Positions 794 to 61,597 of a stretch of 64,000 nt of DNA are shown here, piece by piece. The notes under the pieces were generated by a model. That model was not told where the DNA came from and did no database searches. It worked only from the letters and a program-made list of their open reading frames with translations. Every line of letters starts with the position of its first letter. The first letter of the stretch is position 1. The translations under genes were made by a program, and so were the position numbers. The DNA lies in IMG/VR virus record IMGVR_UViG_3300045988_182490; one strand, written 5' to 3'. The DNA comes from a virus.

Positions 794-1175
794 AATTGTA
801 GTTGTTGTAGTAAAATAGTCTAACTACGATTATGAAGTTAGAAGCGGTTGTTGGCTAGCCGCGGGATTATTTGGCGCTTACATTAAATGTGAAAGTCGAT
901 AAGCAAGGTTATCCTTGGGGTTATGAGTGTTTAAAATATGGAGATTCAGTATTTCAGGAGGAATTTAAGGATACTAAAGAATTTCCCGATTTTAGCACCA
1001 GATGAAACAGACATTAAAAGTAGAAATGTTGCAGAGAGCAAGTAAAAATTAAAAAAGATCAGATACGAGAAATTAAAGAGGAACCATAATTGGTTCCTTT
1101 TTGTATGCAGAAATATCCTTATATATTCATTATCTGTCATATTAATAAAAACAGAAAACATAGGAGGATTAAAAT

Positions 1176-1895
1176 ATGTCTACATTACTTATCTGGAGTG
1201 ACGAAATCCAGAAATTTACAGATCTGTTGAAGGAAAACAAAAAGCTCCCGTCTACATACGATCAGTTTATGGTCCTGGGAACAGAGTTACGCATCAGCGA
1301 TTATAATAAGCTCCGCCAGCTTCCTATTCCGGATGATAAGCTACGTCTTTCCACAGCCCTTTCTGAAAAGAGAGATACATTATTATTTGTTCTCGGAATG
1401 TTGAAGGCAAAAGAAGAAACCCGCGTATGTACGATTGCATCTGTTTCAAAAGAGTTATCTGATTTTGCAAAAGAACAAGATATGGAACTTTTATCCATGG
1501 CAGCTGCCGCAAAAGGATCAGATAAAAAGACTACAAAACCGAGAGTGCGAAATCTTCGAAAAAATGAATCGGTAGCAGAAGAGTCAAATAAAACATTGAA
1601 TCTTAATGATAATAATGGAACAGATTCTATCATTGAGCCAGTTAAAAATGAAAGTATTGATGAATCAGAAAAGACAGAAGAAACGGTCCCAGGGTTACTT
1701 GAAGATCTGGTAAAAGCAGCGGAAAAGAAGACTGGATATGACTATAGTAAGCGGATCGATGAAATCAGAAAAGCAGTTGCTGCAGCATCCGATGACAAGA
1801 TTGGACTTCCGTTCCAGATGCAGATGTTGTTTGGTGAAAAGGGACAAGCGTTGGCTGATGAGTTAACGGGATTTTTCCGGGAACTAAAGGGGTGA
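1176..1895 (+). CDS. hypothetical protein, member of LIWSD N-terminal paralog family
   Basis: 239 aa; RBS AGGAGG; N-terminus MSTLLIWSDEIQ shared with ORFs at 18819 and 19185. Confidence 0.5.
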   Translation: MSTLLIWSDEIQKFTDLLKENKKLPSTYDQFMVLGTELRISDYNKLRQLPIPDDKLRLSTALSEKRDTLLFVLGMLKAKEETRVCTIASVSKELSDFAKEQDMELLSMAAAAKGSDKKTTKPRVRNLRKNESVAEESNKTLNLNDNNGTDSIIEPVKNESIDESEKTEETVPGLLEDLVKAAEKKTGYDYSKRIDEIRKAVAAASDDKIGLPFQMQMLFGEKGQALADELTGFFRELKG

Positions 1896-2111
1896 TTAAA
1901 ATTGATAAATTTAATTGATATTTGTATGCTTTTTGTAGCTACTCTAGGAATATTTTCAATGATTCTTTTGATGATATCACCTTTTTTTAATGATGATGAA
2001 AAGAAAGGAAATATGAAATATATAGGAATTACAGAGTTAATAATAAGTGTTGTTGCGTATGAAGTATTATTTCTTATTTAACATAAAAGATTGTAAAAGA
2101 AAGGAAAAATA

Positions 2112-2771
2112 ATGGATCATAATTTTATTTCATGCTTGTTAATTACTTTTATTGTTCTATATCTAATAAAAGAATGTTTTACGATTCATATGGGACCAAT
2201 ATGTGCATACGATAACACTTTATATTTCGTTCTATTAATCGCCGTTCTTTTGATTGTAGCTATAGGTCGTTCTACCAACCTCATAGAATTTAATTTACCG
2301 GGTACTTTATTAGGAATTGTATGCTTTCTGATTTCGTTCATTATATCTTATTTTTCCTATAAAGCACAGGTTAAAAAATATGAAAAAGAATATCGTGATA
2401 AAAGAAAACTTGTTATTGAAAATATTGACGTTGATGCTCTCAAAGAAGTGATGAAAGAATGTAAAGAATCAGACGTTGATATTTCAAAAAAACAATGTAA
2501 TTGTGCTTGTAAATTTTCTGATAGGAATCCATCAAAAGAACAGTGTTTGGAAGACACATTGCCAACGCCAGATAAGTGTTGTCCTATTTTTGGATGTGAA
2601 AGCGCATATTGTTCCGTATTTAACACTACTGTAGATCATTACACAGATTGTGTATGGTGTGAGCAAAAAGGTTCACGAGAAAGCTGTAAATGTCTTTGTT
2701 TATTAACAAGGATAAATGAGAATAAAGAATTAAAGGATCTTGTTGACAATATTAATTCCAAATCATCGTAG
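2112..2771 (+). CDS. membrane protein with cysteine-rich C-terminal domain
   Basis: 219 aa; 3 predicted TM helices then about 20 Cys in last 100 aa. Confidence 0.45.
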   Translation: MDHNFISCLLITFIVLYLIKECFTIHMGPICAYDNTLYFVLLIAVLLIVAIGRSTNLIEFNLPGTLLGIVCFLISFIISYFSYKAQVKKYEKEYRDKRKLVIENIDVDALKEVMKECKESDVDISKKQCNCACKFSDRNPSKEQCLEDTLPTPDKCCPIFGCESAYCSVFNTTVDHYTDCVWCEQKGSRESCKCLCLLTRINENKELKDLVDNINSKSS

Positions 2772-2949
2772 AAGAAAACATAGCATAGGAGAACAGGCGA
2801 TTTTCTTTTCTATGTCACCGAGTAACAATTTCATTATAAGATATAGATAGTGTATTACTAAGATGGTTTTCATATATGAGACGGCTAATCATATGAGAAC
2901 CTTCTGCGAAGAGCATGGATTAATCTAAAACAAATTTTAATAAAACCTA

Positions 2950-2978
2950 TTGACAAATATAAGCAGAAGTGATATTCT
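2950..2978 (+). promoter_or_regulatory. sigma70-type promoter (TTGACA-17-TGaTATTCT, extended -10)
   Basis: consensus -35 TTGACA, 17-bp spacer, TG-extended -10 upstream of ORF 3136 and the tRNA array. Confidence 0.5.
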
Positions 2979-3135
2979 AATTACAGATGAACGGAGTGCC
3001 TGCCGTAAGTCTTAGATTGTTCTAAGATTTATTGTAAGCGCTCCGTATTTTGTTTTTCAAAAAAATCTGACATAATAATTATGAAGGATAGAAACTACTT
3101 CATACAATGAATTTTTAGAAAGGATAGAAAAGACC

Positions 3136-3381
3136 ATGACTACGATGATCATGAAACATGAACCTCAGTTTTTACAGACATCAGCACTGGAAACAGGGCT
3201 TGGTTCACTGTGCTCTAATTATCATTACGGATGGGATCGAATTGTCGATAATACACCGAAATATAGTCTTTTTGCGAGAAGTTTAGTAAACTTTACACAA
3301 TTGCATAAAACATTCAGTGGTTCTTTTCATAGCCTTTTTAAGCGGGCAGTAGGTATCGGAACAGGCACCCGAGAACTATAA
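3136..3381 (+). CDS. hypothetical protein
   Basis: 81 aa ORF with weak RBS; no motif. Confidence 0.3.
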   Translation: MTTMIMKHEPQFLQTSALETGLGSLCSNYHYGWDRIVDNTPKYSLFARSLVNFTQLHKTFSGSFHSLFKRAVGIGTGTREL

Positions 3382-3551
3382 TAAGAACCGCGCATAGATT
3401 GGAAATATGAAATCATGACCACTGGATTAGGAAATTATCTTAATTTAGTGGTCTTTTTTATGAATGAAAGAAAAATTTTTGTGCAGAAATTTCTATAAAA
3501 CTTATAATCTGTCATAATAAATATATAAGTATTTAACACAATCTTTGATAT

Positions 3552-3624
3552 GGGGCTGTAGCTCAGTTGGGAGAGCGCTTGTCTTGCGAACAAGATGTCG
3601 TGGGTTCAAATCCCACCAGCTCCA
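3552..3624 (+). tRNA. tRNA-Ala (UGC)
   Basis: GGGGCTGTAGCTCAG start, anticodon loop CTTGCGA, GGTTCAAATCC T-arm, 7-bp acceptor. Confidence 0.8.
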
Positions 3625-3630
3625 CTATAT

Positions 3631-3705
3631 GGCCGATTCGACTAGATGGTTTAGGTCACGAGGCTTTCAACCTCGTAGCAGCGGGTTCAAGTCCCCTATC
3701 GGTCA
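3631..3705 (+). tRNA. tRNA-Glu (UUC)
   Basis: anticodon stem CGAGG/CCTCG, loop CTTTCAA; acceptor GGCCGAT/ATCGGTC. Confidence 0.7.
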
Positions 3706-3776
3706 CTGCAGAATAATCTGCGATACAATTTAAAACAATGGGACTTATGGAACCAGGCACTCCGGGAGTCCCAGAT

Positions 3777-3849
3777 GCAGGTGTAGTATAACTGGTCAGT
3801 ACGGTGGCTTGCCAAGTCATAGACGCGGGTTCAAATCCCGTCGCTTGCT
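3777..3849 (+). tRNA. tRNA-Gly (GCC)
   Basis: loop TTGCCAA, GGTTCAAATCC T-arm, acceptor GCAGGTG/CGCTTGC; flanked by 13-bp direct repeat GAACCAGGCACTC. Confidence 0.7.
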
Positions 3850-3951
3850 TTAATTCTGAACCAGGCACTCAGAATTTAAAAAATCTATTACAGGAGAAAA
3901 TAATATGAACAAACGATTTAGCAAGGATAAAACCGAAAGTAATTTTATCCA

Positions 3952-4023
3952 GCCTCGTAAGCTAACTTGGTAGAAGCGCCAGTCTGAAAAACTGGAGGAT
4001 CGGATCGTAACCGAAACGAGGCA
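3952..4023 (+). tRNA. tRNA-Phe (GAA)-like, atypical T-arm (possible pseudo-tRNA)
   Basis: acceptor GCCTCGT/ACGAGGC, D-arm AGCTAACTTGGTAGAAGC, loop CTGAAAA; T-loop ATCGTAA non-canonical. Confidence 0.35.
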
Positions 4024-4027
4024 TTAT

Positions 4028-4102
4028 GGCTGCATCGCCTAGCTGGTTATGGCACCTCCCTGTCACGGAGGAATAACACGGGTTCAAGTCCCGTTGCAGT
4101 CG
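4028..4102 (+). tRNA. tRNA-Asp (GUC)
   Basis: loop CTGTCAC, GGGTTCAAGTCCC T-arm, acceptor GGCTGCA/TGCAGTC. Confidence 0.75.
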
Positions 4103-4109
4103 CTATTGT

Positions 4110-4185
4110 GCATGTGTGGTCCAGTGGTTTTGGACACCTGCCTTCCAAGCAGGACATCACGCGGGTTCGAATCCCGTCACATGCT
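4110..4185 (+). tRNA. tRNA-Gly (UCC)
   Basis: loop CTTCCAA, GCGGGTTCGAATCCCGT T-arm, acceptor GCATGTG/CACATGC. Confidence 0.75.
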
Positions 4186-4254
4186 CTATATCAAAAGTAA
4201 AGGAGATGAAAAAATATGCCAGACTATTATTATATGGGAACTGAATATTATTAA

Positions 4255-4342
4255 CGGCAGGTATGCAAAGGGCTGAAGCAAAGTGTCTGTAAAACACTGA
4301 CCCACGCGGTAAACATTGTGAGTCCGAATCTCACCCTGCCGA
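4255..4342 (+). tRNA. tRNA-Tyr (GUA), long variable arm
   Basis: loop CTGTAAA, variable arm about 14 nt, T-loop TCCGAAT. Confidence 0.6.
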
Positions 4343-4347
4343 CTTCT

Positions 4348-4430
4348 GGGCAGGTATCCCGTAATTGGCAGCGGTGCAGTCTGTAAAACTGTTGGCTTCG
4401 GCTTCTGGCGGTTCAAGTCCGTCTCTGCCC
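4348..4430 (+). tRNA. tRNA-Tyr (GUA)-like second copy, long variable arm
   Basis: acceptor GGGCAGG/TCTGCCC, loop CTGTAAA, GGTTCAAGTCC. Confidence 0.55.
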
Positions 4431-4442
4431 ATTAAAAAATAT

Positions 4443-4521
4443 GTCCTGATACGCAAATTGGCAAAGCGGCCACGCTAAGGACGTGGTGAATTGTTTGTGG
4501 GTTCGACTCCCACTCAGGATA
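4443..4521 (+). tRNA. tRNA, isotype unresolved (anticodon loop CTAAGGA)
   Basis: GGGTTCGACTCCCAC T-arm, acceptor GTCCTGA/TCAGGAT; anticodon ambiguous. Confidence 0.4.
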
Positions 4522-4528
4522 TTAAGAT

Positions 4529-4602
4529 GTCCATGTGGTGCAACTGGCAGACACGCTGGTTTCAGAGACCAGATGTTGGAAGTTCGAATCTTCTCATGGG
4601 CA
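4529..4602 (+). tRNA. tRNA with Leu anticodon (CAG) but short variable arm
   Basis: Leu-like D-arm GTGCAACTGGCAGAC, stem CTGGT/ACCAG, loop TTCAGAG, 5-nt variable region. Confidence 0.5.
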
Positions 4603-4608
4603 CTTTAT

Positions 4609-4681
4609 CGGGATGTGGCGCAATTGGTAGCGCGCGTGATTTGGGATCATGAGGCTGCAGGTTCGAGACCTGTCATTCCGA
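4609..4681 (+). tRNA. tRNA-Pro (UGG)
   Basis: loop TTTGGGA, GCAGGTTCGAGACCTGT T-arm. Confidence 0.7.
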
Positions 4682-4687
4682 CTGTAT

Positions 4688-4761
4688 GCATCAGTGCCGC
4701 AACTGGCAGACGGGACCGGCTCAAACCCGGTTTTCTATGGGTTCGAATCCCTTCTGGTGCA
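4688..4761 (+). tRNA. tRNA with Leu anticodon (CAA) but short variable arm
   Basis: paralog of 4529 tRNA; stem ACCGG/CCGGT perfect, loop CTCAAAC. Confidence 0.5.
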
Positions 4762-4776
4762 TTTGTTTTAAAATTT

Positions 4777-4848
4777 TGGTTTGTAGCTCAATGGTAGAGC
4801 AACCGGCTGTTAACCGGTAGGTTGTGGGTTCAAGTCCCACCATTCCAG
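4777..4848 (+). tRNA. tRNA-Asn (GUU)
   Basis: TAGCTCAATGGTAGAGC D-arm, loop CTGTTAA, GTGGGTTCAAGTCCCAC; acceptor has 2 mismatches. Confidence 0.55.
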
Positions 4849-4852
4849 CTAT

Positions 4853-4936
4853 GGAGGCTGTGGCCGAGTTGGTTAGGCAGCAGATTGTGGCTCTGCGGAA
4901 GTAATTCCTACGTGGGTTCGAGCCCCACTGGTCTCC
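4853..4936 (+). tRNA. type-II tRNA (Ser-like D-arm TGGCCGAGTTGGTTAGGC), anticodon reads GUG; identity uncertain
   Basis: long variable arm with GGAA/TTCC hairpin, GTGGGTTCGAGCCCCAC T-arm. Confidence 0.45.
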
Positions 4937-4950
4937 CTGAAATCAAATAT

Positions 4951-5022
4951 GCCGCTGTAGCACAATGGCAATGCACCTGCTTTGTAATCAGGGGATTAAG
5001 GGTTCGAGTCCCTTCTGCGGCT
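4951..5022 (+). tRNA. tRNA-Thr (UGU)
   Basis: loop TTTGTAA, AAGGGTTCGAGTCCCTT. Confidence 0.6.
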
Positions 5023-5024
5023 TA

Positions 5025-5095
5025 TAGGCGGTTAGGCTAGAGGTAAACCGTGCGGTTCTGAACCGTTAGACACCCGTTCGATTCGGTTACTGTCT
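5025..5095 (+). tRNA. tRNA-like, possibly Gln (CUG); acceptor stem not resolved
   Basis: loop TTCTGAA between CGG/CCG, T-loop TTCGATT; could not pair a clean acceptor. Confidence 0.3.
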
Positions 5096-5100
5096 GCTAT

Positions 5101-5172
5101 GTCCCCATAGCTTAATGGATAGAGTTTTCGGCTACGAACCGAAAGATTGGCGTTCGAGTCGCCATGAGGACA
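5101..5172 (+). tRNA. tRNA-Arg (ACG)
   Basis: stem TTCGG/CCGAA, loop CTACGAA, TGGCGTTCGAGTCGCCA. Confidence 0.7.
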
Positions 5173-5178
5173 TTAAAC

Positions 5179-5252
5179 GCCTGTGTAGCTCCAATTGGCA
5201 GAGCGTCTATCTCGTAAGTAGAGGGTTGCAAGTTCAAATCTTGTCACAGGCT
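5179..5252 (+). tRNA. tRNA-Thr (CGU)
   Basis: perfect acceptor GCCTGTG/CACAGGC, loop CTCGTAA, GCAAGTTCAAATCTTGT. Confidence 0.7.
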
Positions 5253-5265
5253 TTATAAAAATATT

Positions 5266-5335
5266 GTGGTGTATTTCAATGGTAGAAAGACCGTCTGATG
5301 AGCGGTTAATATCAGTTCAATTCTGTTCACCACAA
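5266..5335 (+). tRNA. tRNA-Ile (GAU)
   Basis: acceptor TGTGGTG/CACCACA, loop CTGATGA, T-loop TTCAATT. Confidence 0.55.
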
Positions 5336-5339
5336 CTAT

Positions 5340-5412
5340 GCTGATATAGCTCAACTGGGAGAGCACATGCCTTACAAGCATGGGGTTACAGGTTCGAGTC
5401 CTGTTATCAGCA
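5340..5412 (+). tRNA. tRNA-Val (UAC)
   Basis: TAGCTCAACTGGGAGAGC D-arm, loop CTTACAA, ACAGGTTCGAGTCCTGT. Confidence 0.8.
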
Positions 5413-5415
5413 TTT

Positions 5416-5490
5416 GCGGGTGAGTGGAACGGATTTACCATGCAGGGTTCATAACCCTTGCGATACCAGGCTTCGACTCCTGGACCCGCT
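5416..5490 (+). tRNA. tRNA-Met (CAU)
   Basis: loop TTCATAA, T-loop TTCGACT. Confidence 0.55.
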
Positions 5491-5492
5491 AC

Positions 5493-5564
5493 TCCAGGGT
5501 AGTATAGCGGCGAGTACGGCCGGTTCATGCCCGGTAGACCCGAGTTCGATTCTCGGCCTTGGAA
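5493..5564 (+). tRNA. tRNA-Met/Ile2 (CAU), second CAU tRNA
   Basis: stem GCCGG/CCGGT, loop TTCATGC, CCGAGTTCGATTCTCGG. Confidence 0.6.
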
Positions 5565-5645
5565 TCAAAAAATATTGATAAATGAGGAGAAAACAATCAT
5601 GAAACGAAAACAGTTATATAAGCGATTATCAAAGTTATAATGTAT

Positions 5646-5729
5646 GCATCCGTCGCCTAATTGGTATGGCACCAGACTTTTAATCTGGCGGAATTACTTT
5701 CCATGCGAGTTCGAGTCTCGTCGGGTGCA
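5646..5729 (+). tRNA. type-II (long-arm) tRNA whose anticodon reads UUU; identity uncertain (Leu-like body)
   Basis: stem CCAGA/TCTGG, loop CTTTTAA, 17-nt variable arm with GGAA/TTCC hairpin, GCGAGTTCGAGTCTCGT. Confidence 0.45.
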
Positions 5730-5751
5730 CTGACACTGTATGTGTATCCGC

Positions 5752-5824
5752 GGGTATGTAACTCAAGTGGCAGAGTAGCGGCCTCTTAAGCCGAAGGTTG
5801 CAGGATCATGGCCTGTCATGCCCA
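5752..5824 (+). tRNA. tRNA-Lys (CUU)-like with degenerate T-loop
   Basis: acceptor GGGTATG/CATGCCC, TAACTCAAGTGGCAGAGTA D-arm, loop CTCTTAA; T-loop ATCATGG. Confidence 0.45.
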
Positions 5825-5828
5825 TTAT

Positions 5829-5902
5829 GCGCCAGTAGCCCAATCGGCAGAGGCACAGGGTTTAAGCCCCTGTCAGTATCGGTTCGAATCCGATTTGGCG
5901 TA
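5829..5902 (+). tRNA. tRNA with anticodon UAA (Leu-type) and short variable arm
   Basis: perfect anticodon stem CAGGG/CCCTG, loop TTTAAGC, ATCGGTTCGAATCCGAT. Confidence 0.5.
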
Positions 5903-6221
5903 CTTTTTCAATATATTCAACAACAATTTATGAAAATTGTAAGAAAGGATAACCAATATGCGTAACACAAACATATGTAAAAGACAATCCAATAGTTCAT
6001 GGTCAGAGAGTAGACATAATAAGAAGATGTACTGCTTTATTTGTTGATGCAATTTTTTTGCATAACAATATTTGGCATTAGTTATTTTAGTAACAGCATC
6101 TTCTGATAAAAACATTATCGAAGGATGCTGTTTTTTGTATATAAAATTTCTGCATGAAAATTTATTAAAATCATTCATATTAATAATAAAAATAAAAAGT
6201 GCATTTTTTATAATTTTATAT

Positions 6222-6295
6222 GGGCATATAGTTTAATGGTTTAGAATACGAGATTCCAAATCTCGAAGATGTGGGTTCGAATCCTACTGTGCCTG
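6222..6295 (+). tRNA. tRNA-Trp (CCA)
   Basis: stem CGAGA/TCTCG, loop TTCCAAA, GTGGGTTCGAATCCTAC. Confidence 0.7.
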
Positions 6296-6325
6296 TTATA
6301 AGTCAATATTTAATAGACAGAAGGG

Positions 6326-6844: not shown

Positions 6845-6867
6845 CAGGGGGTTCAAAAGCCCCAAAT

Positions 6868-7747: not shown

Positions 7748-7800
7748 ATATCTAAAATCTGACATATTAAATGTATCAATAAAGAAAAAAGGAGATTAAT

Positions 7801-10098: not shown

Positions 10099-10111
10099 TC
10101 TGTCATATTAA
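10099..10111 (+). promoter_or_regulatory. conserved promoter-like box TCTGTCATATTAA (representative instance)
   Basis: one of about 28 copies placed directly after a terminator and 25-40 nt before an RBS. Confidence 0.5.
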
Positions 10112-12410: not shown

Positions 12411-12518
12411 AAATTTAGGCAGCTATACTAAAAACAAAGGATCTCTTTTGAGGTCCTTTATTTTTTAAGCAGTTATTCTGTCATATTAATATCAAATTAG
12501 ACAATTGGAGGAAAAGAT

Positions 12519-14170: not shown

Positions 14171-14341
14171 CTAGACTTTCCATAATTAAAAAACAGTAGA
14201 GTATTGTACAAACCAATATCATTTTCAAAACACAATACAAAAAGGGACAGAACGATGACTTTTTAAAGCCTTCCGAAATGTTTTTTCGGGAGGTTTTTTT
14301 CTTTCATACTAATAGTATTAAAAGAAAATAGGAGGAATTGT

Positions 14342-15407: not shown

Positions 15408-15599
15408 AAGTGCATATGATTATTGTAACCAAAGCTACTATTGAAACATATATAAGGAATCAGGGCTAAGCCCTGCACCTTACATCCACACACCATAATG
15501 GAGTGTGGTTTTACGGCGAAGATTATAAAAACCTTCCGGAATTTTCCGGAAGGCTTTTCTTTCATATTAACTATATCAAGGAAAACAGGAGGAAAATAA

Positions 15600-18141: not shown

Positions 18142-18194
18142 TTTCTTTTTTCTGACATATTATTTTTATAAATAAAGAAAAAAGGAGAATAATT

Positions 18195-19910: not shown

Positions 19911-19993
19911 ATAACAAATAGGAAAAAGGATCCTTATGGATCCTTTTTCTGACATATTATTTGCATCAAGGAAGAAAGGTGGAGAATCTATAG

Positions 19994-21848: not shown

Positions 21849-21939
21849 AATTAGAAGAAGCCCGTGAGGGCTTTTTCTATGCAGAAAAAATTGGCCTCTA
21901 AATAAATCTTTCATATTAATTATAAATTTGGAGGTTAGA

Positions 21940-22806: not shown

Positions 22807-22868
22807 ACAAAAATTATATATATTTTTCTGTCATTATAAATATATCAAGAAAATAGGAGGAAAATAAT

Positions 22869-23471: not shown

Positions 23472-23671
23472 ATGGAAATGGTAAAATCAAGAAAATTTGA
23501 TAAAGTATAAAAACCTGGCTATTTAATAGTCAGGTTTTTTAAAATCTATTTTCTGTCATATTAGAGATATCAAAATAAAGATAAATGGAGGATATATAAT
23601 ATGATAATTTATAATAATGGAACGATTTCTGTTCCGGAAAAAATTATGCCACATTAGCAAATGCTGTAAGT

Positions 23672-27510: not shown

Positions 27511-27559
27511 ACTGAAAGTTAAATTACAATATTTAAAAAATTCATGGAAACATGAATTT

Positions 27560-27603
27560 TTTTGTGCAGAAAAATCTAAAATCCATAAAATCTGTCATAT
27601 TAA
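27560..27603 (+). promoter_or_regulatory. bipartite promoter cassette TTGTGCAGAAA-N17-weak -10 followed by TCTGTCATATTAA box (representative)
   Basis: same architecture at 3476-3520, 32887-32929, 50296-50340, 1103-1145. Confidence 0.45.
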
Positions 27604-32857: not shown

Positions 32858-32890
32858 ATCCCACGGTTTATTCATGCCGTGGGATTTTTG
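32858..32890 (+). terminator. intrinsic terminator
   Basis: ATCCCACGG-loop-CCGTGGGAT hairpin plus TTTTTG. Confidence 0.6.
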
Positions 32891-32992
32891 TGCAGAAAAA
32901 TACATTTAATCATAAATCTGTCATAATAAAGATAAAGAACATAAATGGTAATTAGATGGTACATTAAACTAAAATTTAAAGGAGAACATAAA

Positions 32993-34710: not shown

Positions 34711-35096
34711 CACAAGCTATGTAGCTTTCAATTAGGAAGAATAATACTTTATAATACCTCTTTCTTAATCAGTTTTAATCAAAGAGCAGCTGGCAGGGAT
34801 ATAATTCAAAAATTATTCAATATAAATGATCAAGTTATGAGCTGTATGCAAAAGGGGTTAGGAGTCGGAAAAGGGTTACAATACATTCATGATAAAAATG
34901 ATGAAATAATTGTATTTCGACAATAGTAGTTATGAAGTGGACCGGTTCTTAACATAAATGTTTATATTTTCGCATTTGCAGACTAAAACCATCTATGAGT
35001 AATCCAAAAATATCTGTCATATTAATTATGGAACAATGAATAAAGGGTTTCGATCTTAACTCTTTAACTATGAGGAAAACCTCTGGAAAGGAGTTT

Positions 35097-37568: not shown

Positions 37569-37586
37569 GAATTTCTATGCAGAAAT

Positions 37587-37614
37587 TTGCATCTATAGAA
37601 CCATTTGTTATAAT
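37587..37614 (+). promoter_or_regulatory. sigma70 promoter (TTGCAT-16-TATAAT) driving sRNA copy A
   Basis: consensus -35/-10 with TG-extended -10 (TGTTATAAT). Confidence 0.6.
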
Positions 37615-37703: not shown

Positions 37704-37769
37704 GCTATTTTCTGTCATATTATAAATAACATAAGAAAATAGGAGAATTTATTTTGGAGGATAAATAAT

Positions 37770-40371: not shown

Positions 40372-40432
40372 TATTTTGTCTTGTTTCATCTGTCATATTA
40401 ATTACATCAAAAAGATAAATGGAGGAAATAAT

Positions 40433-41667: not shown

Positions 41668-41750
41668 AAGAAGTCTCTTGGCTTCTTTTTCTTTTATATT
41701 CCTTTATCTGTCATATTAACTATATCAAACAGATAATAGGAGGAAATTAT

Positions 41751-42832: not shown

Positions 42833-42923
42833 GTTAGAAAAAGAAGTCAAAAGGCTTCTTTTTCTTTTATCCTCCTTTATCTGTCATATTAACTATATCA
42901 ACAGATAACAGGAGGAAAATAAT

Positions 42924-46633: not shown

Positions 46634-46981
46634 CAGCACTCCTCCCACGACTAAAGTCACGGGTGCCCGTGCTAAGCGAATTTATGAAATATTACCTATA
46701 ATAACGAAGAGGGACAGATAGCTGTTCCTCTTTGTTATTATCTAAAAGGGATAGTATATTGGTACTTTCGATGTAAACGGGACAATAATCTGTGCCGGTT
46801 GCATAAAGGGATAATATACTATTCCTTTAAATTTATTAATTAAAGGAACATAATTCTATCACTTTCAATCATATAAGGGATATAATATTATCCTTTTAAC
46901 ATATAGCTTATAATTTTTAGAAATGATCTTTTTGTCTCTTTATCTGTCATATTAATGGTAGAAAAACAAACGGAGGTGCTT

Positions 46982-49974: not shown

Positions 49975-50087
49975 AGATAGTTCACTGAAATAAAGTACGA
50001 CAAAAAGCTCCTGTTACAAAGAGGTAAAATCAGATAAAGAACAATAAATCATTAAAAACATGGACGTAAAAATTTCTGTGCAGAAAT

Positions 50088-50115
50088 TTGCAATAATTTT
50101 CAAAGCTGTTATAAT
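50088..50115 (+). promoter_or_regulatory. sigma70 promoter (TTGCAA-16-TATAAT) driving sRNA copy B
   Basis: consensus -35/-10, TGTTATAAT extended -10. Confidence 0.6.
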
Positions 50116-50203: not shown

Positions 50204-50361
50204 TACATATATTTTCTTCCATATTATTTGTATAAACAAAGGAATTCAAAATAAAAACCAATATACTCAAAATCAAGATATTTTACGGTGAATTTTGTGC
50301 AGAAATTTACAGTGTTTTTAAATTTAATCTATCATATTAATATCAGAAAGGTGGTATAATT

Positions 50362-53148: not shown

Positions 53149-53203
53149 CAAATTTTACACCGTCTATTTCTGTCATATTAACAGCAGAAAGGACGGTGTT
53201 TTT

Positions 53204-54073: not shown

Positions 54074-54170
54074 AAAAGAGGCGGATGTCACTTTGACACC
54101 ACCTTTTCTATTTTTTCATATTTGTTTTCTATCATATTAGTGTTAGAATAATAGAAAAACGGAGGAAGAA

Positions 54171-55435: not shown

Positions 55436-55581
55436 GTAATATTACCTCTGATCTAAATAATATTTATTCCATAATAACAAAAATAATTCACAATAACAAT
55501 ATTTTTGCATACATTTTCTTTCATATTAATTTTGTATATATGAAAAATGGAGAAAACCATTAAAAACAGAAAGGATTTTTT

Positions 55582-56526
55582 ATGAATATCGTATTACTTG
55601 TTATTGGTGTTGTAGCTGCAATTTTGGGAATTATAATTAGAATTTTGACGAAGGATACTGGTTATGTAAAGCTCGGCAAACATTATGCACATCCTATGAT
55701 TATCGGTGGCCTTATACTACTGGTATTTAGTCAGTCGTTTGCAATTATTCCAACTGGATATACCGGAGTACGAATTACATTCGGACAGATTGATAATCGA
55801 ACGGTTCAGAATGGATTTAACTGGAAGATTCCTTTTGTGCAGTCTATTAATCAGGTCAACAATAAACAGCAGGATATTTCCTATACCGGCCAGGTTTGGA
55901 GTGAGACTGCTGAGCGTACCGTTTTATACTATGAAGGAATAACTGTCACATACACAATTAACCCCGAAAAGAGCGCCTGGATCTATGCGAACGTATCAGA
56001 TTATAAGAAAAATCTGATTTCAGATAATCTTGTTGCATCCGCAATCAAGAGTAGCAGTAAGGAACTGAATTCTACAGATGCAACCAATCGTGGAATCATT
56101 GAACCTATTGCACAGGAAAAGATTCAGGAAGCTTTAGATCAAAAGTATGGTCCCGATGTGGTATTTATCAATAAGGTAGTTATCGCAAATACTGACTTTG
56201 AAGAAAGCTATAATCAGGCCATTGCAGATAAACAGACTGCGCAGCTTGCGTATGAAAAGCAGCAGATTGAAAATAAACGGCAGATTGAAGCGGCGGAAGC
56301 AGATGCTCAGGTTAAAACGACGCAGGCAAAAGCTGAAGCTGACGCAGCTGTAATTAAGGCGCAGGGCGAGGCGGATGCAAATAAACTTTTGAATGATTCC
56401 ATTACGGATAAGATTTTGAGACAGCAGTATTATGAAAAGTGGAACGGACAGCTACCTAATGTTATTACCGGTGATTCCAGTGACATTATTATGGATATTG
56501 GAAAAACAACATTGGGAGAAGAATAA
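55582..56526 (+). CDS. SPFH/band-7 (prohibitin/HflC-K-like) membrane protein
   Basis: 314 aa; two N-terminal TM, TGYTGVRITFGQI...NWKIPFVQSI SPFH core, Ala/Gln-rich coiled coil. Confidence 0.8.
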   Translation: MNIVLLVIGVVAAILGIIIRILTKDTGYVKLGKHYAHPMIIGGLILLVFSQSFAIIPTGYTGVRITFGQIDNRTVQNGFNWKIPFVQSINQVNNKQQDISYTGQVWSETAERTVLYYEGITVTYTINPEKSAWIYANVSDYKKNLISDNLVASAIKSSSKELNSTDATNRGIIEPIAQEKIQEALDQKYGPDVVFINKVVIANTDFEESYNQAIADKQTAQLAYEKQQIENKRQIEAAEADAQVKTTQAKAEADAAVIKAQGEADANKLLNDSITDKILRQQYYEKWNGQLPNVITGDSSDIIMDIGKTTLGEE

Positions 56527-56693
56527 TTTGAAAAAGAAACATTAAACTTTCTTCAGACTGTATAATAAACGCTTTTGGCCAGCTGGCCAGAAGCGTTTAT
56601 TATACACATACATATTCATGATAACAATATTTTTGCATGTATTTTCTTTCATATTAATTTTATAAAATAACTTTTCGATAGGAGAATGAGTAT

Positions 56694-57326
56694 ATGTATG
56701 GAAAAATGATGATTGAGGAATTGAAACGTTTCTTTAATACAGATGAGCTAAAGCCAAGTATTGTGGTGCTGGATGTCGGTGTTTTCTTCCCATATGCGAA
56801 TCAGGATATTTTGAAGTTTGATATGGGTTTGAACGAACTCCCTCTGGATGCAGGACGGTTTGATGATATGAAGTTCAACCATAGATATCCGAACCGTAAT
56901 TATGTGACTCTGTCCTGTATTAACGAGCGGAAAATCAGTCGTGTGGGCTATCCTATTATAGGCGAAGTTGCGGAAATGACTGGAGAGAAGTATCTGTGTA
57001 TGGATTATGGCATTGGGGATTCTAATAAAATTTCTATTGTGGTTCCTATCATGTTCAATTTAACAGAGGATGCTCCCTGTGCGACAATACAGGTAAGAAT
57101 GAATCTGCGGAATCCAAATGAGCCGACTTTCAGTATTCATGTACATATTCCGTTAGATAAGGAAGAATGGAAAGTCATGAACTATTGGTCTCATGACGAG
57201 GTGCCGGAAGATGATTATAATGAACTGCTTATACCAGATGTGGCATTAACTTCCGAGAAAGATTGCAGAATCGTATATGAGCCGATTGTAATAAATGGCT
57301 ACGGAGAAAACGATATGGTCGTTTAG
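56694..57326 (+). CDS. hypothetical protein
   Basis: 210 aa. Confidence 0.55.
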   Translation: MYGKMMIEELKRFFNTDELKPSIVVLDVGVFFPYANQDILKFDMGLNELPLDAGRFDDMKFNHRYPNRNYVTLSCINERKISRVGYPIIGEVAEMTGEKYLCMDYGIGDSNKISIVVPIMFNLTEDAPCATIQVRMNLRNPNEPTFSIHVHIPLDKEEWKVMNYWSHDEVPEDDYNELLIPDVALTSEKDCRIVYEPIVINGYGENDMVV

Positions 57327-57639
57327 ATGCAATCTGCATCAGCTGAAGAAGCATCAAACAGAGAGCTAATAAGGTTTCTTTTTTTATGAGAAAAGTGGTT
57401 AATACAGATCAAGATATTGCATATTTTTTAAATTGATTTTCAAACAATTACTTTTACAAAAGTCTATTGTTTATGCTGTGTTGCAAGCATTTACATCCAC
57501 TTAACGGATGTATTTTAAACATCAATATTTTTATTCTTATTTTTAAGGAATATAAAATATGAAATATTATTTTTTCAAATAATTGTTTCCATAATTTCTT
57601 TCATATTAATTGTATCAAAAGAAAATTGGAGGAAACGAA

Positions 57640-58236
57640 ATGGACAAATTTGAAATATTTAATAACACAAATTTAGGACAGCTCACCGCTATATTTGGAG
57701 ACAATGGCAATATTTGGTTCCTGACAAAAGATGTTGCTAAAATTTTGTGTATGAAGGCAGAGCATGCTCTTCGTTTAGTTGATCCTGAAGATAGAACTGA
57801 ATTTTTCATCAATATCGGAACCGGCAGACGTAAATATCAGTGTGTAAATGAATACGGTATTTATGAAATGATTTTCGCATCCAAGAAACAGGAAGCAAAA
57901 ACATTCCGTAAGTGGGTGACTCATGAAGTATTGCCGTCTATTCGTAAAAACGGTGGTTATATCATTGGACAGGAAGAATTGAAAGGAGAAGAGAAAGAAA
58001 AACTGGAAGAACAGATTCGTCAGTTGGCAAAGCAGGTAAACGCTTACAGAGAAGACGGAAATCTTTGGATGAATATGTATTTTAACATTCAGAAAGATTA
58101 TCTGGATGCTGTTGAAAAAATCTATGGAAAAAAGACCAATATTGCAAACGATAAAACAACAAAGACAGAATATGTTGTTTCCCCCGAAGGATGGATTCTT
58201 CCAAAATCCCTATATTTATTGAACGATAATGATTAA
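57640..58236 (+). CDS. Bro-N domain antirepressor-like protein
   Basis: 198 aa; Bro-N motifs FNNTNLGQLTAIFGDNGNIWFL ... FRKWVTHEVLPSIRKNGGY. Confidence 0.8.
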   Translation: MDKFEIFNNTNLGQLTAIFGDNGNIWFLTKDVAKILCMKAEHALRLVDPEDRTEFFINIGTGRRKYQCVNEYGIYEMIFASKKQEAKTFRKWVTHEVLPSIRKNGGYIIGQEELKGEEKEKLEEQIRQLAKQVNAYREDGNLWMNMYFNIQKDYLDAVEKIYGKKTNIANDKTTKTEYVVSPEGWILPKSLYLLNDND

Positions 58237-58354
58237 TTTAGGCAGCTTTGGCTGCCTTTTTTATATAAAACCGTGAAAAAGCAGACTGTATAATTGGTAT
58301 AGGATTCCATAAAAATAATGTCATATTAATTATATATAATATAAGTCAATAACC

Positions 58355-58612
58355 CATCACTAAAGTGACGGGTTTGTAAAAGCCCGATATTGACTAGCCT
58401 AAGTGTTTCGAACACTACGTTACGAGAGAATATATAGTCACCTGCGGATGTAATACCTAGTCTGCAGCTCTGAGGTCCGTGATTAAACAGTCCTGTTGGA
58501 TAGGGACAGTGTTGCGGATATCCAAAACCTCTCATTAACATTGGCGAAGGTATCATTACAGAGGAATGACCTCTGATTTATGTGATTTGGTTCACAGAAA
58601 GGAGTGCCTGTT
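58355..58612 (+). ncRNA. putative omega RNA, copy 2
   Basis: same sequence as copy 1 scaffold. Confidence 0.6.
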
Positions 58613-59884
58613 ATGGTATATGTTCTTAACATTGACGGACAGCCGCTTATGCCCACTGACAGGCATGGAAAGGTCCGGCATCTTTTGAAGGACGGCCGGG
58701 CGGAAGTAGTAAAGTGCTGTCCGTTTACCATACGACTGTTGTATGACAGCACGCACTATACGCAGGATATCGTATTAGGCGTGGATGCCGGCAGCAAACA
58801 TATCGGTTTGTCGGGCACCACGGAAACAAAAGAACTCTATGCTTCCGATGTAGAGCTCAGAAATGACATTGTGGATCTTATTTCCACACGCAGACAGAAC
58901 CGCAGGTTCCGTCGTAATCGTAAGACACGGTACCGGAAAGCCCGATTCCTGAACCGGTTATCCGATAAGAAGGACTGGTTGGCTCCCAGTATCCGGCAGA
59001 AAGTCGATACCCACATGACCGTGGTATCCAGAGTATGTAAGATACTTCCGGTCACAAAGATCATCGTGGAGACAGCATCCTTTGATATCCAGAAGATCAA
59101 GGATCCGGATATCAGTGGTACTGGTTATCAACATGGTGAGCAGCTCGATTTCTGGAACGTCCGGGAGTATGTATTATTCCGGGATGGACATACCTGCCAG
59201 TGCTGCAAAGGCAAATCCAAGGATCCGGTACTCAATGTACATCATATCGAGAGCCGTAAGACTGGCGGCGATGCTCCCAATAACCTGATCACCTTATGTG
59301 AGACCTGTCATAAGGGTTATCACTCAGGTGCGGTGCAGCTGCCGAAAGCCATCCATCGTGGCATGAGATTCAAGGATGCTGCATTCATGGGAGTCATGCG
59401 ATGGAATTTCTATAACAAACTGAAGGAAATCTATGAGCTACAGGGCATTGAGATACGTATGACATTTGGGTATCTCACAAAGAATACCCGTATCCGTCAT
59501 CATCTGCCAAAGGAGCATTACATAGATGCCAGGTGCATCAGCGGTCATCCGGAAGCAATACCCAGCAACGAAGTTTTCTATCAGAAGAAGGTTCGCTGCC
59601 ATAACCGCCAGATACATAAGAACACTATCCTTAAAGGTGGTATCCGAAAACGAAATCAGGCCGGCTATCTGGTAAAAGGCTTCCGGCTGTTCGATAAAGT
59701 AGCTTACAAAGGCAGAGAGTACTTCATTTTTGGACGCAGGCAAAGTGGATTCTTCGATTTGCGGAATCTGTCCGGATGCAAAGTAAACAAAGGCAGTCTC
59801 AGTTACCGGAAGATCGGATTTCTGGAACCTAGACAATACTATTTATGTGAAAGGAGAGTAATGGACACCCAGGGCTATGCTTAA
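58613..59884 (+). CDS. iscB: IscB RNA-guided nuclease, copy 2
   Basis: 423 aa, all IscB motifs intact. Confidence 0.9.
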   Translation: MVYVLNIDGQPLMPTDRHGKVRHLLKDGRAEVVKCCPFTIRLLYDSTHYTQDIVLGVDAGSKHIGLSGTTETKELYASDVELRNDIVDLISTRRQNRRFRRNRKTRYRKARFLNRLSDKKDWLAPSIRQKVDTHMTVVSRVCKILPVTKIIVETASFDIQKIKDPDISGTGYQHGEQLDFWNVREYVLFRDGHTCQCCKGKSKDPVLNVHHIESRKTGGDAPNNLITLCETCHKGYHSGAVQLPKAIHRGMRFKDAAFMGVMRWNFYNKLKEIYELQGIEIRMTFGYLTKNTRIRHHLPKEHYIDARCISGHPEAIPSNEVFYQKKVRCHNRQIHKNTILKGGIRKRNQAGYLVKGFRLFDKVAYKGREYFIFGRRQSGFFDLRNLSGCKVNKGSLSYRKIGFLEPRQYYLCERRVMDTQGYA

Positions 59885-60284
59885 CCGCACTCCTCCCACG
59901 ACTAAAGTCACGGGTGTCCGTGCTAAGCGAATTTATGAATATAGCCACGTATCAAACAACGCCAGAACTGGAAAGAAAAACTCAATTCATCAAACAATAA
60001 GTAACAAGTAAATAAGATTGATTATATTGTTTTCTGCAACCAAAACTTTTATACACTTTTTCTGACATAATATAGTTGAAGAGAAAACTGGAGAAACTTT
60101 TTTACGGATTTAAGATAAAAAATCCGTTTGACCTTATAGATTTTACTTTTATAACTCCGGAATGTGACCGGAGATAACATAAACCAACCTTTTTCTTAAG
60201 ATACAGTCCAACCGGATGGACAAAATGTACTGCTTCATCCGGTTACGGAAGCAGTTACAATAATTAATAAAGAGGGAAAATGCA

Positions 60285-60659
60285 ATGAATAGAAAAGACA
60301 AAAACGAAATGGCCAACAAAAACGTAAAAGACTTCCACGTTCCGAAGGCAGAGAACATGCTTAAAGAAACAGAACCGAATACACTTATTAAATGGGTGGA
60401 CTTAATTACTAAAGCTAAGGATAGCGGAAACACATATTGTTACTTATGTTCTGATGACGGTAGAGTAACAAGAAATGCCGTTATAAAAATCCTCGAAGCA
60501 GGATATGATCTTAAATACTCATTCTTTAAGGATGAAATGACCGGACAGTCTCTTTTTATAAAGGCATTCTGGCAAGAAGGTTGCAGTGGCAGACTTTATG
60601 ATGAACGGTCAAAAGAATATGTAGACGTTGACACAATGTTTTATAGAATCATGGCATAA
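60285..60659 (+). CDS. hypothetical protein
   Basis: 124 aa. Confidence 0.5.
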   Translation: MNRKDKNEMANKNVKDFHVPKAENMLKETEPNTLIKWVDLITKAKDSGNTYCYLCSDDGRVTRNAVIKILEAGYDLKYSFFKDEMTGQSLFIKAFWQEGCSGRLYDERSKEYVDVDTMFYRIMA

Positions 60660-60761
60660 TTGTTGAGTAATTCCTTCCAAACTATATAGTGCTCCCGCCG
60701 AGCGAAACATTTCTTACTGTTTCCGGCGGGGAAACAGTATGGCCAATATGGAGGGCAAAAT

Positions 60762-61112
60762 ATGAAAAACTTAAATGAAACCAATCTGTTAAAAGCACTG
60801 AATACCCAGCCGAGACTTGCTTTTGAATTAATCAAAGCATTGGGAAAAGCTTCGGAAGATCTGATGATTTATGAAAGAATCAACAGCAGACCTGATCGCG
60901 AACTGGCGCGTCAGAGTAAACTCGGAGAAGCTATCAAATTCTCCAATAAAGTCGTAGGAGTCGTGTCTCGTATGGAACGCGAGACAGGTTGGACCATTAT
61001 AAAAAAATATCTGCATAATGACAGCGAAAAACTGGAATTCATGCAGGATCTGGACGATTTCTTTAACGAGCTCTATGCAGAGCAGGAAGAAAAAACAGTT
61101 AACAATGTTTAA
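60762..61112 (+). CDS. hypothetical protein
   Basis: 116 aa. Confidence 0.5.
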   Translation: MKNLNETNLLKALNTQPRLAFELIKALGKASEDLMIYERINSRPDRELARQSKLGEAIKFSNKVVGVVSRMERETGWTIIKKYLHNDSEKLEFMQDLDDFFNELYAEQEEKTVNNV

Positions 61113-61152
61113 AATAATAGCCCCGAGGATGTTTATCCTTAGGGCTATTTTC

Positions 61153-61453
61153 TTATAATTCAGAAATAATCTTGCAAATCTTATCCTGTAATTCTCCAGC
61201 TTCCTTAGCATAAGCAATTCCGGAAAGAAATTCCTTATTCTGTGATGCCTCTTCAATTGTTTCCGGAGTTTTTCTCATGGAAGCTCTTGCAAGATTTGCA
61301 TATCCTTCTGTAGAAACTGCCCGGTACAGGTTAATCAGTTCTTTTAATTTCGGGTGGTTCTCATATTCCTCAAGAACCTTATTAAATTCTTCATTCTCCA
61401 TAAAAATCAGATCATCGTAATTTCTTTTCTTTCTGAATTCTTTGATTTCTGCC
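61153..61453 (-). CDS. hypothetical protein (minus strand)
   Basis: about 100 aa from internal Met with AAGAGG RBS. Confidence 0.4.
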
Positions 61454-61597
61454 ATTTTCTTTTTCCTCTTTATCTTTGCTGTATTCTGTTTTCTATAGAT
61501 AATATAACACGATTTGGAATGAACGGCAAATTTCTGCACAGAAATTTCAATTTATTTTTCAGTCATATTAACTATAACAATCGATAAAAGGAGAAAA

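Follow-up and report, generated by a model that had tools for sequence, protein, structure and literature searches.

Bacteriophages are known to redirect the host core RNA polymerase to a repeated promoter consensus of their own, as SPO1 does through gp28 and gp33/34 and T4 through gp55. Housekeeping sigma factors (sigma-70/SigA) in turn read extended -10 (TGn) promoters, in Firmicutes of the form TRTGn, which have a TG one base ahead of the -10 hexamer, A(-11), T(-7), and a dispensable -35 hexamer. A third related arrangement is the promoter-early stem-loop (PeSL) of T4-like phages, a module of terminator and host sigma-70 early promoter that stands between small accessory genes and at which some insertions and deletions end (PMC2839356, PMC4122927). 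The stretch of DNA analyzed here, the 64,000-nt IMG/VR virus record IMGVR_UViG_3300045988_182490 (hereafter the window), appears to be part of a giant phage-like element, and it contains many copies of a short conserved sequence, the box, 28 of which had been listed in an earlier note based on the letters alone. We conclude that the box is very likely a promoter. We also favor, with moderate confidence, the view that it represents the standard promoter of the element, with a sigma factor encoded by the element itself as its most likely reader.

The 13-nt sequence TCTGTCATATTAA was found 39 times in the window with at most two mismatches, 31 of the matches being on the + strand, whereas 4.9 ± 2.1 were expected from dinucleotide-preserving shuffles, none of which reached 39 in 100 trials. 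To avoid circularity, a 22-column weight matrix was built from 56 non-redundant sites of related contigs only, with the window excluded. Scanning the window with this matrix at a threshold of at least 14 bits gave 33 sites on the + strand and none on the - strand, against a null expectation of 0.1 per strand. All 28 boxes listed previously were present within 2 nt, and five further ones (at 3066, 6171, 7758, 50215, and 62391) were added. The conserved block exceeds 13 nt and reads T1 C2 T3 G4 T5 C6 A7 T8 A9 W10 T11 A12 A13 nnn T17 A18 n M20 A21 A22, or in short TCTGT-CATAWT-AA-nnn-TA. The individual sites are given below with the open reading frame (ORF) or RNA gene that follows; RBS denotes a ribosome-binding site.

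1133..1145, + strand: box TCTGTCATATTAA, 26.1 bits, before ORF 1176-1895; palindrome upstream
3066..3078, + strand: box TCTGACATAATAA, 21.2 bits, before ORF 3136-3381; new
3508..3520, + strand: box TCTGTCATAATAA, 44 nt ahead of the first tRNA of the array 3552-5903; palindrome upstream
6171..6183, + strand: box TCATTCATATTAA, 50 nt ahead of tRNA-Trp at 6221; new
7758..7770, + strand: box TCTGACATATTAA, before ORFs 7801-7983 and 7996-10059; terminator stem ends 15 nt upstream; new
10099..10111, + strand: box before ORF 10141-11547; terminator stem ends 5 nt upstream
12477..12489, + strand: box before ORF 12519-12692; terminator 14 nt upstream
14300..14312, + strand: box TCTTTCATACTAA, before ORF 14342-14545; terminator 2 nt upstream
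15558..15570, + strand: box TCTTTCATATTAA, before ORF 15600-16301; terminator 4 nt upstream
18151..18163, + strand: box TCTGACATATTAT, before ORF 18195-18773; terminator 14 nt upstream
19948..19960, + strand: box TCTGACATATTAT, before ORF 19994-20176; terminator 2 nt upstream
21907..21919, + strand: box TCTTTCATATTAA, before ORF 21940-22806; palindrome upstream
22827..22839, + strand: box TCTGTCATTATAA, before ORF 22869-23471
23552..23564, + strand: box TCTGTCATATTAG, before a short ORF with RBS; terminator 14 nt upstream
27591..27603, + strand: box before ORF 27635-27862; palindrome upstream
32917..32929, + strand: box TCTGTCATAATAA, before the region of 32993-33142 and the TnpB-like gene 33241-34569; palindrome upstream
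35013..35025, + strand: box before ORF 35070/35097-35687
37711..37723, + strand: box TCTGTCATATTAT, before ORF 37770-37970; directly 3' of the terminator of a small-RNA (sRNA)-like unit
40389..40401, + strand: box before the C5 DNA methylase gene 40433-41431; terminator 13 nt upstream
41707..41719, + strand: box before ORF 41751-42074; terminator 17 nt upstream
42880..42892, + strand: box before ORF 42924-43523; terminator 14 nt upstream
46943..46955, + strand: box before ORF 46982-47770
50215..50227, + strand: box variant TCTTCCATATTAT, 18.4 bits, separated from the next box by roughly 100 nt without coding sequence; new
50328..50340, + strand: box TCTATCATATTAA, before ORF 50362-50634; palindrome upstream, with TGCAGAA starting 30 nt before the box
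53169..53181, + strand: box before ORF 53204-54073
54128..54140, + strand: box TCTATCATATTAG, before ORF 54171-54518
55517..55529, + strand: box TCTTTCATATTAA, before the SPFH gene 55582-56526
56645..56657, + strand: box TCTTTCATATTAA, before ORF 56694-57326
57597..57609, + strand: box TCTTTCATATTAA, before the Bro-N gene 57640-58236
58317..58329, + strand: box variant AATGTCATATTAA, 28 nt before the HEARO/omega RNA 58345-58559, with IscB at 58604-59884
60061..60073, + strand: box variant TCTGACATAATAT, 15.9 bits, before a short terminator-ended non-coding unit
61559..61571, + strand: box TCAGTCATATTAA; palindrome upstream; the next ORF reads ACG where the near-identical contig L032 has ATG
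62391..62403, + strand: box variant TCTTACATAATAA, 20.8 bits, before ORF 62442-62777; terminator 14 nt upstream; new

The placement of the boxes is that of a regulatory signal. As had been claimed before, none lies inside an ORF: 30 of 30 tabulated boxes are intergenic and the remaining three (50215, 60061, and 62391) also fall in intergenic intervals, although only 10,169 of the 64,000 nt (16%) of the window are intergenic. Counted from the first base of the box, the distances to the start codon have a sharp maximum at 42 to 44 nt, equivalent to 29 to 31 nt from the box end and within the 25 to 45 nt proposed in the earlier note. That note also had the boxes 0 to 15 nt behind intrinsic terminators. 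For 22 of the 33 boxes, a terminator-like hairpin was indeed present in the preceding 80 nt, compared with 15% of random positions, but the tight spacing holds for only about 13, in which the terminator stem ends 2 to 17 nt before the box. Terminator-like sites were enriched in the window (26 versus 11.7 expected), and canonical sigma-70 patterns were not (87 versus 76.9 ± 8.9 expected). In many terminator-to-RBS intervals, for example that of the unit at 10099, the box is the sole conserved feature. Its orientation follows that of the gene, since the - strand gene YdjM on contig L053 has a - strand box 52 nt upstream. Boxes are also located upstream of the tRNA arrays (3508 and 6171), a HEARO/omega RNA (58317), and short terminator-ended RNA units, and a translation signal can therefore be dismissed. 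Given the co-orientation with genes, the intergenic placement, the non-coding targets, and the otherwise bare terminator-RBS intervals, a promoter is clearly the simplest reading, and the box behaves as the strand-specific intergenic promoter without -35 element that had been proposed, as far as sequence can tell.

Two of the downstream regions deserve comment. The IscB and HEARO/omega-RNA unit at 58345-59884, which has a counterpart at 45094-46633, is an insertion relative to L032, with breakpoints at 58344 and 59967. As the insertion lies 15 nt past the box at 58317, the omega RNA would be made from the box promoter. The ORF behind the box at 61559 (61559-61640), whose start codon is ATG in L032 and ACG in the window, is probably a start-codon pseudogene.

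The same placement might be explained by a transcribed or protein-bound element, such as an RNase site, a translational leader, an sRNA pairing site, or an operator, with transcription being supplied by read-through of leaky terminators; a leader or processing role had already been considered in the earlier note. The leader of many box-driven mRNAs, ATCAAAGATAAA..GGAGG, is in fact partly conserved and complementary to a motif in two sRNA-like units of the window, which are driven from the following sites:

37572..37614, + strand: palindrome and full sigma-A-type promoter TTTGCA-17-TG-T-TATAAT with T(-12), driving the sRNA-like unit 37615-37706
50073..50115, + strand: perfect palindrome and full sigma-A-type promoter TTTGCA-17-TG-T-TATAAT with T(-12), driving the paralogous sRNA-like unit 50116-50206

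The two paralogous units (37572-37706 and 50073-50206) are about 90 nt long and 82% identical, and each consists of the palindrome, the promoter TTTGCA-17-TGTTATAAT, a 5' hairpin, the motif CTTTTATCTTTGAT, and a terminator. The motif CTTTTATCTTTGAT is antisense to the common leader, and for about 10 leaders duplexes of -17 to -25 kcal/mol were predicted. This pairing, however, was not significantly better than that with the RBS regions of box-less genes (p=0.16). Moreover, the box sequence is not itself palindromic, and its core has the anatomy of a -10 region and lies ahead of every plausible start. Boxes also stand before tRNA and non-coding RNA genes, for which an RBS is superfluous, and many terminators are separated from their genes by no other promoter. 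A role of the box in RNA or as a mere protein-binding site is thus highly unlikely.

The repeats could also be mobile or recombinogenic junctions, resembling either miniature inverted-repeat transposable elements (MITEs), which the earlier note had named as an alternative, or PeSL cassettes, so that their regulatory appearance would be secondary. Gene cassettes do vary between strains, strain-to-strain breakpoints lie within -60 to +40 nt of a box in 8 of 46 cases against 2.4 expected, and some neighboring units have a flank of about 80 nt in common (41707 with 42880, and 55517 with 56645). Most breakpoints are nevertheless located away from boxes, and no terminal inverted repeats, target duplications, or conserved body were found beyond the roughly 22 nt of the box plus an optional palindrome, the flanks being otherwise unconserved. 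The strict co-orientation with genes (33 sites on the + strand versus 0 on the - strand) and the fixed spacing to the start codon indicate regulatory constraint, and we consider the chance that mobility accounts for the repeats to be very slim indeed. The MITE alternative can be set aside. The likeness to PeSLs, i.e., terminator-promoter modules between small accessory genes with some indels ending there, is limited by the modest breakpoint enrichment and by the distribution of the modules, which span the whole readable element rather than only hyperplastic islands; a PeSL-like role in recombination is plausible as a side effect of a promoter function.

In the register that we propose, T-C-T-G-T would occupy positions -17 to -13 and form an extended -10 element of the Firmicute "TnTG" kind, followed by CATAWT at -12 to -7 and AA at -6/-5, whereas T(-1) and A(+1) would correspond to box positions 17 and 18 and a -35 hexamer would be absent. 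A typical unit would thus be composed of a terminator, the box, a leader of about 25 nt with GGAGG, and the gene. Three lines of evidence support this register. First, a TG precedes CATAWT by one base (T3 in 28 of 30 sites, G4 in 21 of 30 and in 48 of 68 of a larger set), and A(-11) and T(-7) are invariant. Second, in the paralogous promoter pair 37572-37614 and 50073-50115, the palindrome is spaced as it is at the boxes, and TGT-TATAAT falls exactly into the register of the box. Third, the shortest leaders measure 33 to 35 nt from box start to ATG and would lose their RBS if transcription started much past box position 23, which places the start at or before about this position. No -35 signal was detected in 68 sites without palindrome; there is only a T-run at about -32 to -30, which coincides with the terminator tails. 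The likeness to extended -10 SigA promoters is nonetheless incomplete, as the box has an invariant C(-12), a strong C(-16), and AA(-6/-5), and G(-14) in only about 70% of cases. C(-12) was found in all 33 sites of the window and also in sister lineages of the element, and such invariance fits the sigma-70 family only if the sigma factor concerned reads position -12 differently.

A -10 region beginning with CAT is typical of the sporulation sigma factors sigma-G and sigma-F, whose promoters combine CATnnTA with a -35 element GnATA or GTATA at a distance of 17 to 18 nt. Both CATATTA and CATAATA match this -10 pattern, so that a host sigma factor of this type could in principle read the box and tie expression of the element to sporulation. 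A GnATA-like element 17 to 18 nt upstream is absent, the conserved TCTGT block has no counterpart in sigma-G/F promoters, and the element has a SigA-like sigma factor of its own, described below, which scores 133 bits against the SigB/F/G model and about 255 against RpoD models. Interference of phages with sporulation sigma factors is documented (PMC9429907), and even with this precedent a link to sporulation seems very improbable.

About one-fifth of the boxes are accompanied by a 14-bp palindrome, TTTCTGTGCAGAAA, which reads TTTCTG-TG-CAGAAA and whose center lies near -42.5 in our numbering. With at most three mismatches, 41 such sites were counted, compared with 10.4 expected. Those located upstream of boxes in the window are as follows:

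1100..1113: palindrome TTTGTATGCAGAAA, upstream of the box at 1133
3476..3489: palindrome TTTTTGTGCAGAAA, starting 32 nt before the box at 3508
21874..21887: palindrome TTTCTATGCAGAAA, upstream of the box at 21907
27559..27572: palindrome TTTTTGTGCAGAAA, starting 32 nt before the box at 27591
32885..32898: palindrome TTTTTGTGCAGAAA, starting 32 nt before the box at 32917
50292..50305: palindrome ATTTTGTGCAGAAA, upstream of the box at 50328
61531..61544: perfect palindrome (TTTCTGTGCAGAAA on the - strand), upstream of the box at 61559

In 13 of 16 cases, the right half, TGCAGAA, begins precisely 26 nt ahead of the box. In the earlier note, TTTTTGTGCAGAAA had been described at several of these sites, which is correct, and its TTGTGC had been taken for a -35 hexamer paired with an AT-rich hexamer. 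This second part does not hold. TTGTGC represents half of the palindrome, the AT-rich hexamer between it and the box is not conserved, and the distance from TTGTGC to CATAWT amounts to 28 nt, which is too far for a -35 element. Class II activator sites, e.g., those of CRP, FNR, and lambda cI at PRM, are centered near -41.5. The palindrome resembles them in its fixed distance to a promoter without -35 hexamer, and from this activator- or operator-like position it is presumably a regulator site bound by a dimeric regulator. Palindromes mark the boxes ahead of the tRNA array, replication genes, cas genes, and the sigma operon. PDB sequence searches with two helix-turn-helix (HTH) proteins of the window yielded nothing useful with respect to a palindrome-binding protein. 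One protein with such a fold is the 392-amino-acid (392-aa) product of 16926-18104, which has an N-terminal XRE-type HTH domain and is encoded divergently from a 106-aa ORF on the - strand; it has no PDB relative by sequence. Its gene has no box; by eye, a sigma-A-like promoter TTGCAT-17-TAGAAT is apparent at 16869-16897, and the protein may possibly be an early regulator or repressor.

The earlier note had pointed to the remainder of the genome as the place for a sigma-like gene, and such a gene was in fact found. Walking out of the window over metagenome contigs that are 97 to 100% identical in their overlaps, we read about 39 kb on either side, which brings the total to about 142 kb. In the strain walked, a gene for a 295-aa protein of the sigma-70 family is located about 33 kb downstream of the window end (contig L059, 14679-15566). 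A sigma factor was not seen among the matches listed for the 95 window proteins in Pfam and NCBIfam scans. The 295-aa protein has Pfam regions 1.2, 2, 3, and 4 and lacks region 1.1. It is most like RpoD/SigA, with an RpoD_Cterm match of 4.9e-70 that is nevertheless far below the equivalog cut-offs, and is closest to Firmicute SigA structures, being 44 to 46% identical to the cellular SigA/RpoD sequences aligned. Its regions and DNA-reading residues are those of group 1/2 (SigA/RpoD-like) sigma factors. An alignment with three solved SigA structures and six cellular homologues showed the following for the promoter-reading regions:

Region 4.2: VTRERIRQIEAK in the element sigma factor and VTRERIRQIEAK in all but one of the aligned cellular SigA sequences; the -35-reading residues are unchanged
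Region 3.0: the equivalents of H455 and E458, which read the TG of the extended -10 element, are kept as in cellular SigA
Region 2.4: FSTYATFWIRQAALRGI in the element sigma factor versus FSTYATWWI(R/K)Q(A/S)ITR(A/S)I in SigA, i.e., W433F, I439A, T440L, and S442G

The element sigma factor thus has Leu at the equivalent of E. coli T440, the -12-reading residue, where housekeeping sigma factors have Thr. In E. coli sigma-70, where both of these residues are turned toward the -12 base pair, a T-to-C exchange at -12 is suppressed by the substitutions Q437H and T440I (PMC2613000). The element protein resembles these mutants in that the T440 equivalent is changed and occurs together with C(-12) promoters; it differs in being a natural protein with Leu rather than Ile and, judged from the alignment, in having the additional changes W433F (in the window-linked lineage), I439A/T, and S442G. 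The element sigma factor is a candidate reader of the box because its -12-reading residue is changed where the boxes carry C(-12). The clade is small. Two sister lineages have sigma factors 62 to 63% identical to that of the walked strain, keep the Leu within an ALRG/xLRG signature, and share both the box and its distance to the palindrome; the order in each is a palindrome-bearing box, tRNA-Pro, and the sigma gene. No sigma factor closer than about 45% identity was found in GenBank phages or PLSDB plasmids, and no close sigma relatives were found in IMG/VR.

The earlier note had drawn a parallel to late promoters of the T4 gp55 type. The redirection of the host core polymerase to a private repeated consensus would indeed be shared with SPO1 and T4, but the late-promoter parallel does not stand. 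The element sigma factor is a near-complete SigA paralogue with regions 1.2 to 4 rather than a minimal or highly divergent protein, and the element promoter departs from the host type mainly at -12. The consensus CATAWTAA after TCTGT differs from the TATAAATA of T4 gp55, and it is also unlike the SPO1 motifs. Finally, the genes behind boxes are not late genes, as boxes serve accessory, tRNA, nucleotide-metabolism, replication, CRISPR-Cas, xis, and sigma genes.

The box could instead be read by the host sigma-A holoenzyme as a -35-independent extended -10 promoter, with or without a palindrome-binding factor, while the element sigma factor serves other promoters, for example those of virion genes. 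The box is close to TnTGnTATAAT, its CATAAT variant matching the hexamer at five of six positions; the sigma gene and xis are located behind boxes like ordinary regulated genes; and the canonical region 4.2 of the element protein suggests that its own promoters might have a -35 element. Set against this are the invariance of C(-12) in the 33 window sites and the sister lineages, since sigma-A prefers T and selection would be expected to restore it, and the location of the change common to the sigma clade exactly at the -12-reading residue. Furthermore, the T(-12) promoters that occur in the register of the box are of the full sigma-A type with a -35 hexamer and drive only the sRNA-like units, and a box ahead of a putative large-terminase gene in the sister-lineage contig L119 makes a separate late class not evident. 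We therefore regard reading by host sigma-A as unlikely. Reading by a non-sigma RNA polymerase of the element, be it a single-subunit, a YonO-like, or a jumbo-phage multisubunit enzyme, would account for the length of the conserved block (about 22 nt), which recalls T7-type promoters, and its gene could lie on the left, beyond the part of the element that was read. A TATATTAC-like core occurs in some early promoters of jumbo phages. No RNA polymerase gene, however, was present in the Pfam tables of about 142 kb of the lineage, and the presence of a complete sigma factor implies use of the host core enzyme, which leaves little room for a polymerase of this kind.

Several observations weigh against reading of the box by the element sigma factor. 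Only some 70% of boxes have G(-14). Were TATTAA (box positions 8 to 13) the true -10 hexamer, the conserved C would be located at -14 and the argument from region 2.4 would fail. The sigma gene lies outside the window and is linked to it only via contigs from other samples, which are near-identical (98 to 100%) where they overlap. Its region 4.2 is canonical (TRERIRQIEAK) and yet the box class has no -35 element, so that an unseen, -35-bearing promoter class could be the real target of the protein. The sigma gene itself is located behind a box, and its first expression would therefore need weak reading of the box by sigma-A or another promoter; a candidate start-up promoter, TTGACA-17-TATATC, is present upstream of the gene in L059. 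Lastly, Leu is not Ile, and the T440I analogy is taken from E. coli genetics with another protein. On balance, assignment of the box to the element sigma factor appears plausible, with the start site, the holoenzyme, and the role of the palindrome deduced from sequence features.

According to the favored model, the box would be the core promoter of almost every transcription unit of the element and would be read by the 295-aa SigA paralogue on the host core RNA polymerase. Leu in region 2.4 would make C(-12) promoters the private class of this sigma factor, and the few T(-12) promoters with a -35 hexamer in the same register would stay with host sigma-A. The palindrome-bearing boxes ahead of tRNA arrays, replication genes, and the sigma gene suggest an auto-amplifying switch. 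More tentatively, almost the entire gene content of the element, more than 140 kb, may be insulated from transcription by the host through a natural orthogonal pair, namely the SigA paralogue with its Thr-to-Leu change and promoters for which C(-12) is the sole systematic difference from the host extended -10 type, and T(-12) promoters may be reserved for leader-antisense sRNAs, by which the host polymerase would damp element genes until the element sigma factor takes over.

The window is a low-GC gene array with nearly all genes on the + strand. It contains 33 tRNA genes, two IscB/HEARO units, a TnpB-like gene, methyltransferases, SPFH proteins, radical-SAM enzymes, and many small ORFs with a strong GGAGG RBS. 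Its tRNA genes at 3552-7714 include one with an odd anticodon loop (7539-7611), and a second, small tRNA cluster with oversized tRNA-like genes of 95 to 96 nt flanks the sigma gene (L059, 13649-15644). Cargo proteins of the window match the anti-phage ATPase IteA (the match presumably being the AAA gene 25874-26785), a DarG-like macro-domain antitoxin, FloT-like flotillins, and viperin-like and Cfr/RlmN-like radical-SAM enzymes; a PARP/WGR protein is encoded outside the window in L059. The flanking regions contain the following:

Left side (about 39 kb read): genes of a type I-C cas system and of restriction-modification, the gene for a 1,508-aa InlB-repeat protein, and further small cassettes
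Right side (about 39 kb read): guanylate kinase, thymidylate synthase, dUTPase, RuvB-like, RecG-like, and HU proteins and a tRNA cluster
Right side, continued: the sigma factor, a PARP-like protein, then an integrase, then ybeY

Boxes occur throughout the 142 kb or so, ahead of cas5d, the 1,508-aa gene, nucleotide-metabolism and replication genes, and xis. On the left (L118, 1-3606, about 39 kb from the window), type I-C cas5d-cas8c-cas7 stand behind a box with a half-palindrome and are followed by a possible array region and an N6-methylase/BsuBI-PstI restriction-modification pair; the element thus appears to carry its own CRISPR-Cas system. The right end (L059, 18994-20118; L115, 14463-16448) has a tyrosine integrase and, in L115/L114, a Tn916-type Xis. 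In the sister lineage, Xis precedes the integrase and further host-like genes lie past ybeY. The integrase is directly followed by ybeY and host-like oxidoreductase genes, indicating that the element is integrated next to ybeY. The xis gene has a box at L115:14417, which suggests that the box class is off in lysogens and fits control by the sigma factor or a palindrome-binding factor better than constitutive reading by sigma-A.

No virion genes were found in the part of the element that was read. The sole hint of a packaging gene comes from the sister lineage, in which an 830-aa P-loop_TraG/DUF87 protein encoded behind a box (L119, 8266-10758) matches PHROG 2666, "terminase large subunit," with an E value of 3e-10. 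From its gene content, the element is best described as a giant integrated temperate phage-like element of more than 140 kb, not a proven phage, and may be either a phage or a conjugative element.

No box was present in the host DNA past the integrase or in one bacterial chromosome locus, and the eight single box hits in GTDB representative genomes all lie in unrelated contexts and are attributed to chance. Relatives of the element were detected neither in GenBank phages nor in PLSDB plasmids (megablast and tblastn); no close relative was found in IMG/VR or GTDB representative genomes, and the extended box pattern was absent from IMG/VR. The following candidates were rejected. The IMG/VR contigs L001 to L014 encode relatives (about 50% identity) of a 468-aa protein; they differ in GC content and are devoid of boxes. 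The look-up of P0430 pointed to a bacterial Tad-pilus locus. Contigs L029 to L031, with tightly packed genes and no boxes, represent a different element; they have a 100% identical 86-aa protein (window 63554-63814) and neighboring genes in common with the element analyzed here, indicating a recent exchange between unrelated mobile elements. The element is very common in human-gut assemblies, one of its proteins being indexed in 1,841 blocks of a public assembly collection. Proteins identical to those of the window or the linked contigs are labeled Anaerobutyricum soehngenii, Clostridium sp. AF34-10BH, or "Caudoviricetes sp.," and a near relative (a close cluster member) of an element protein is labeled Eubacterium ventriosum. 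The element is assigned to human-gut Lachnospiraceae.

If the favored model is correct, a widespread and uncharacterized gut element would follow a simple transcriptional logic, and it would provide a natural case of a change in sigma specificity brought about by a single promoter base together with the residue known from E. coli suppressor genetics. The box permits the annotation of transcription units, including non-coding ones, across the element family, and the sigma factor and the box could serve as an orthogonal expression pair for Lachnospiraceae.

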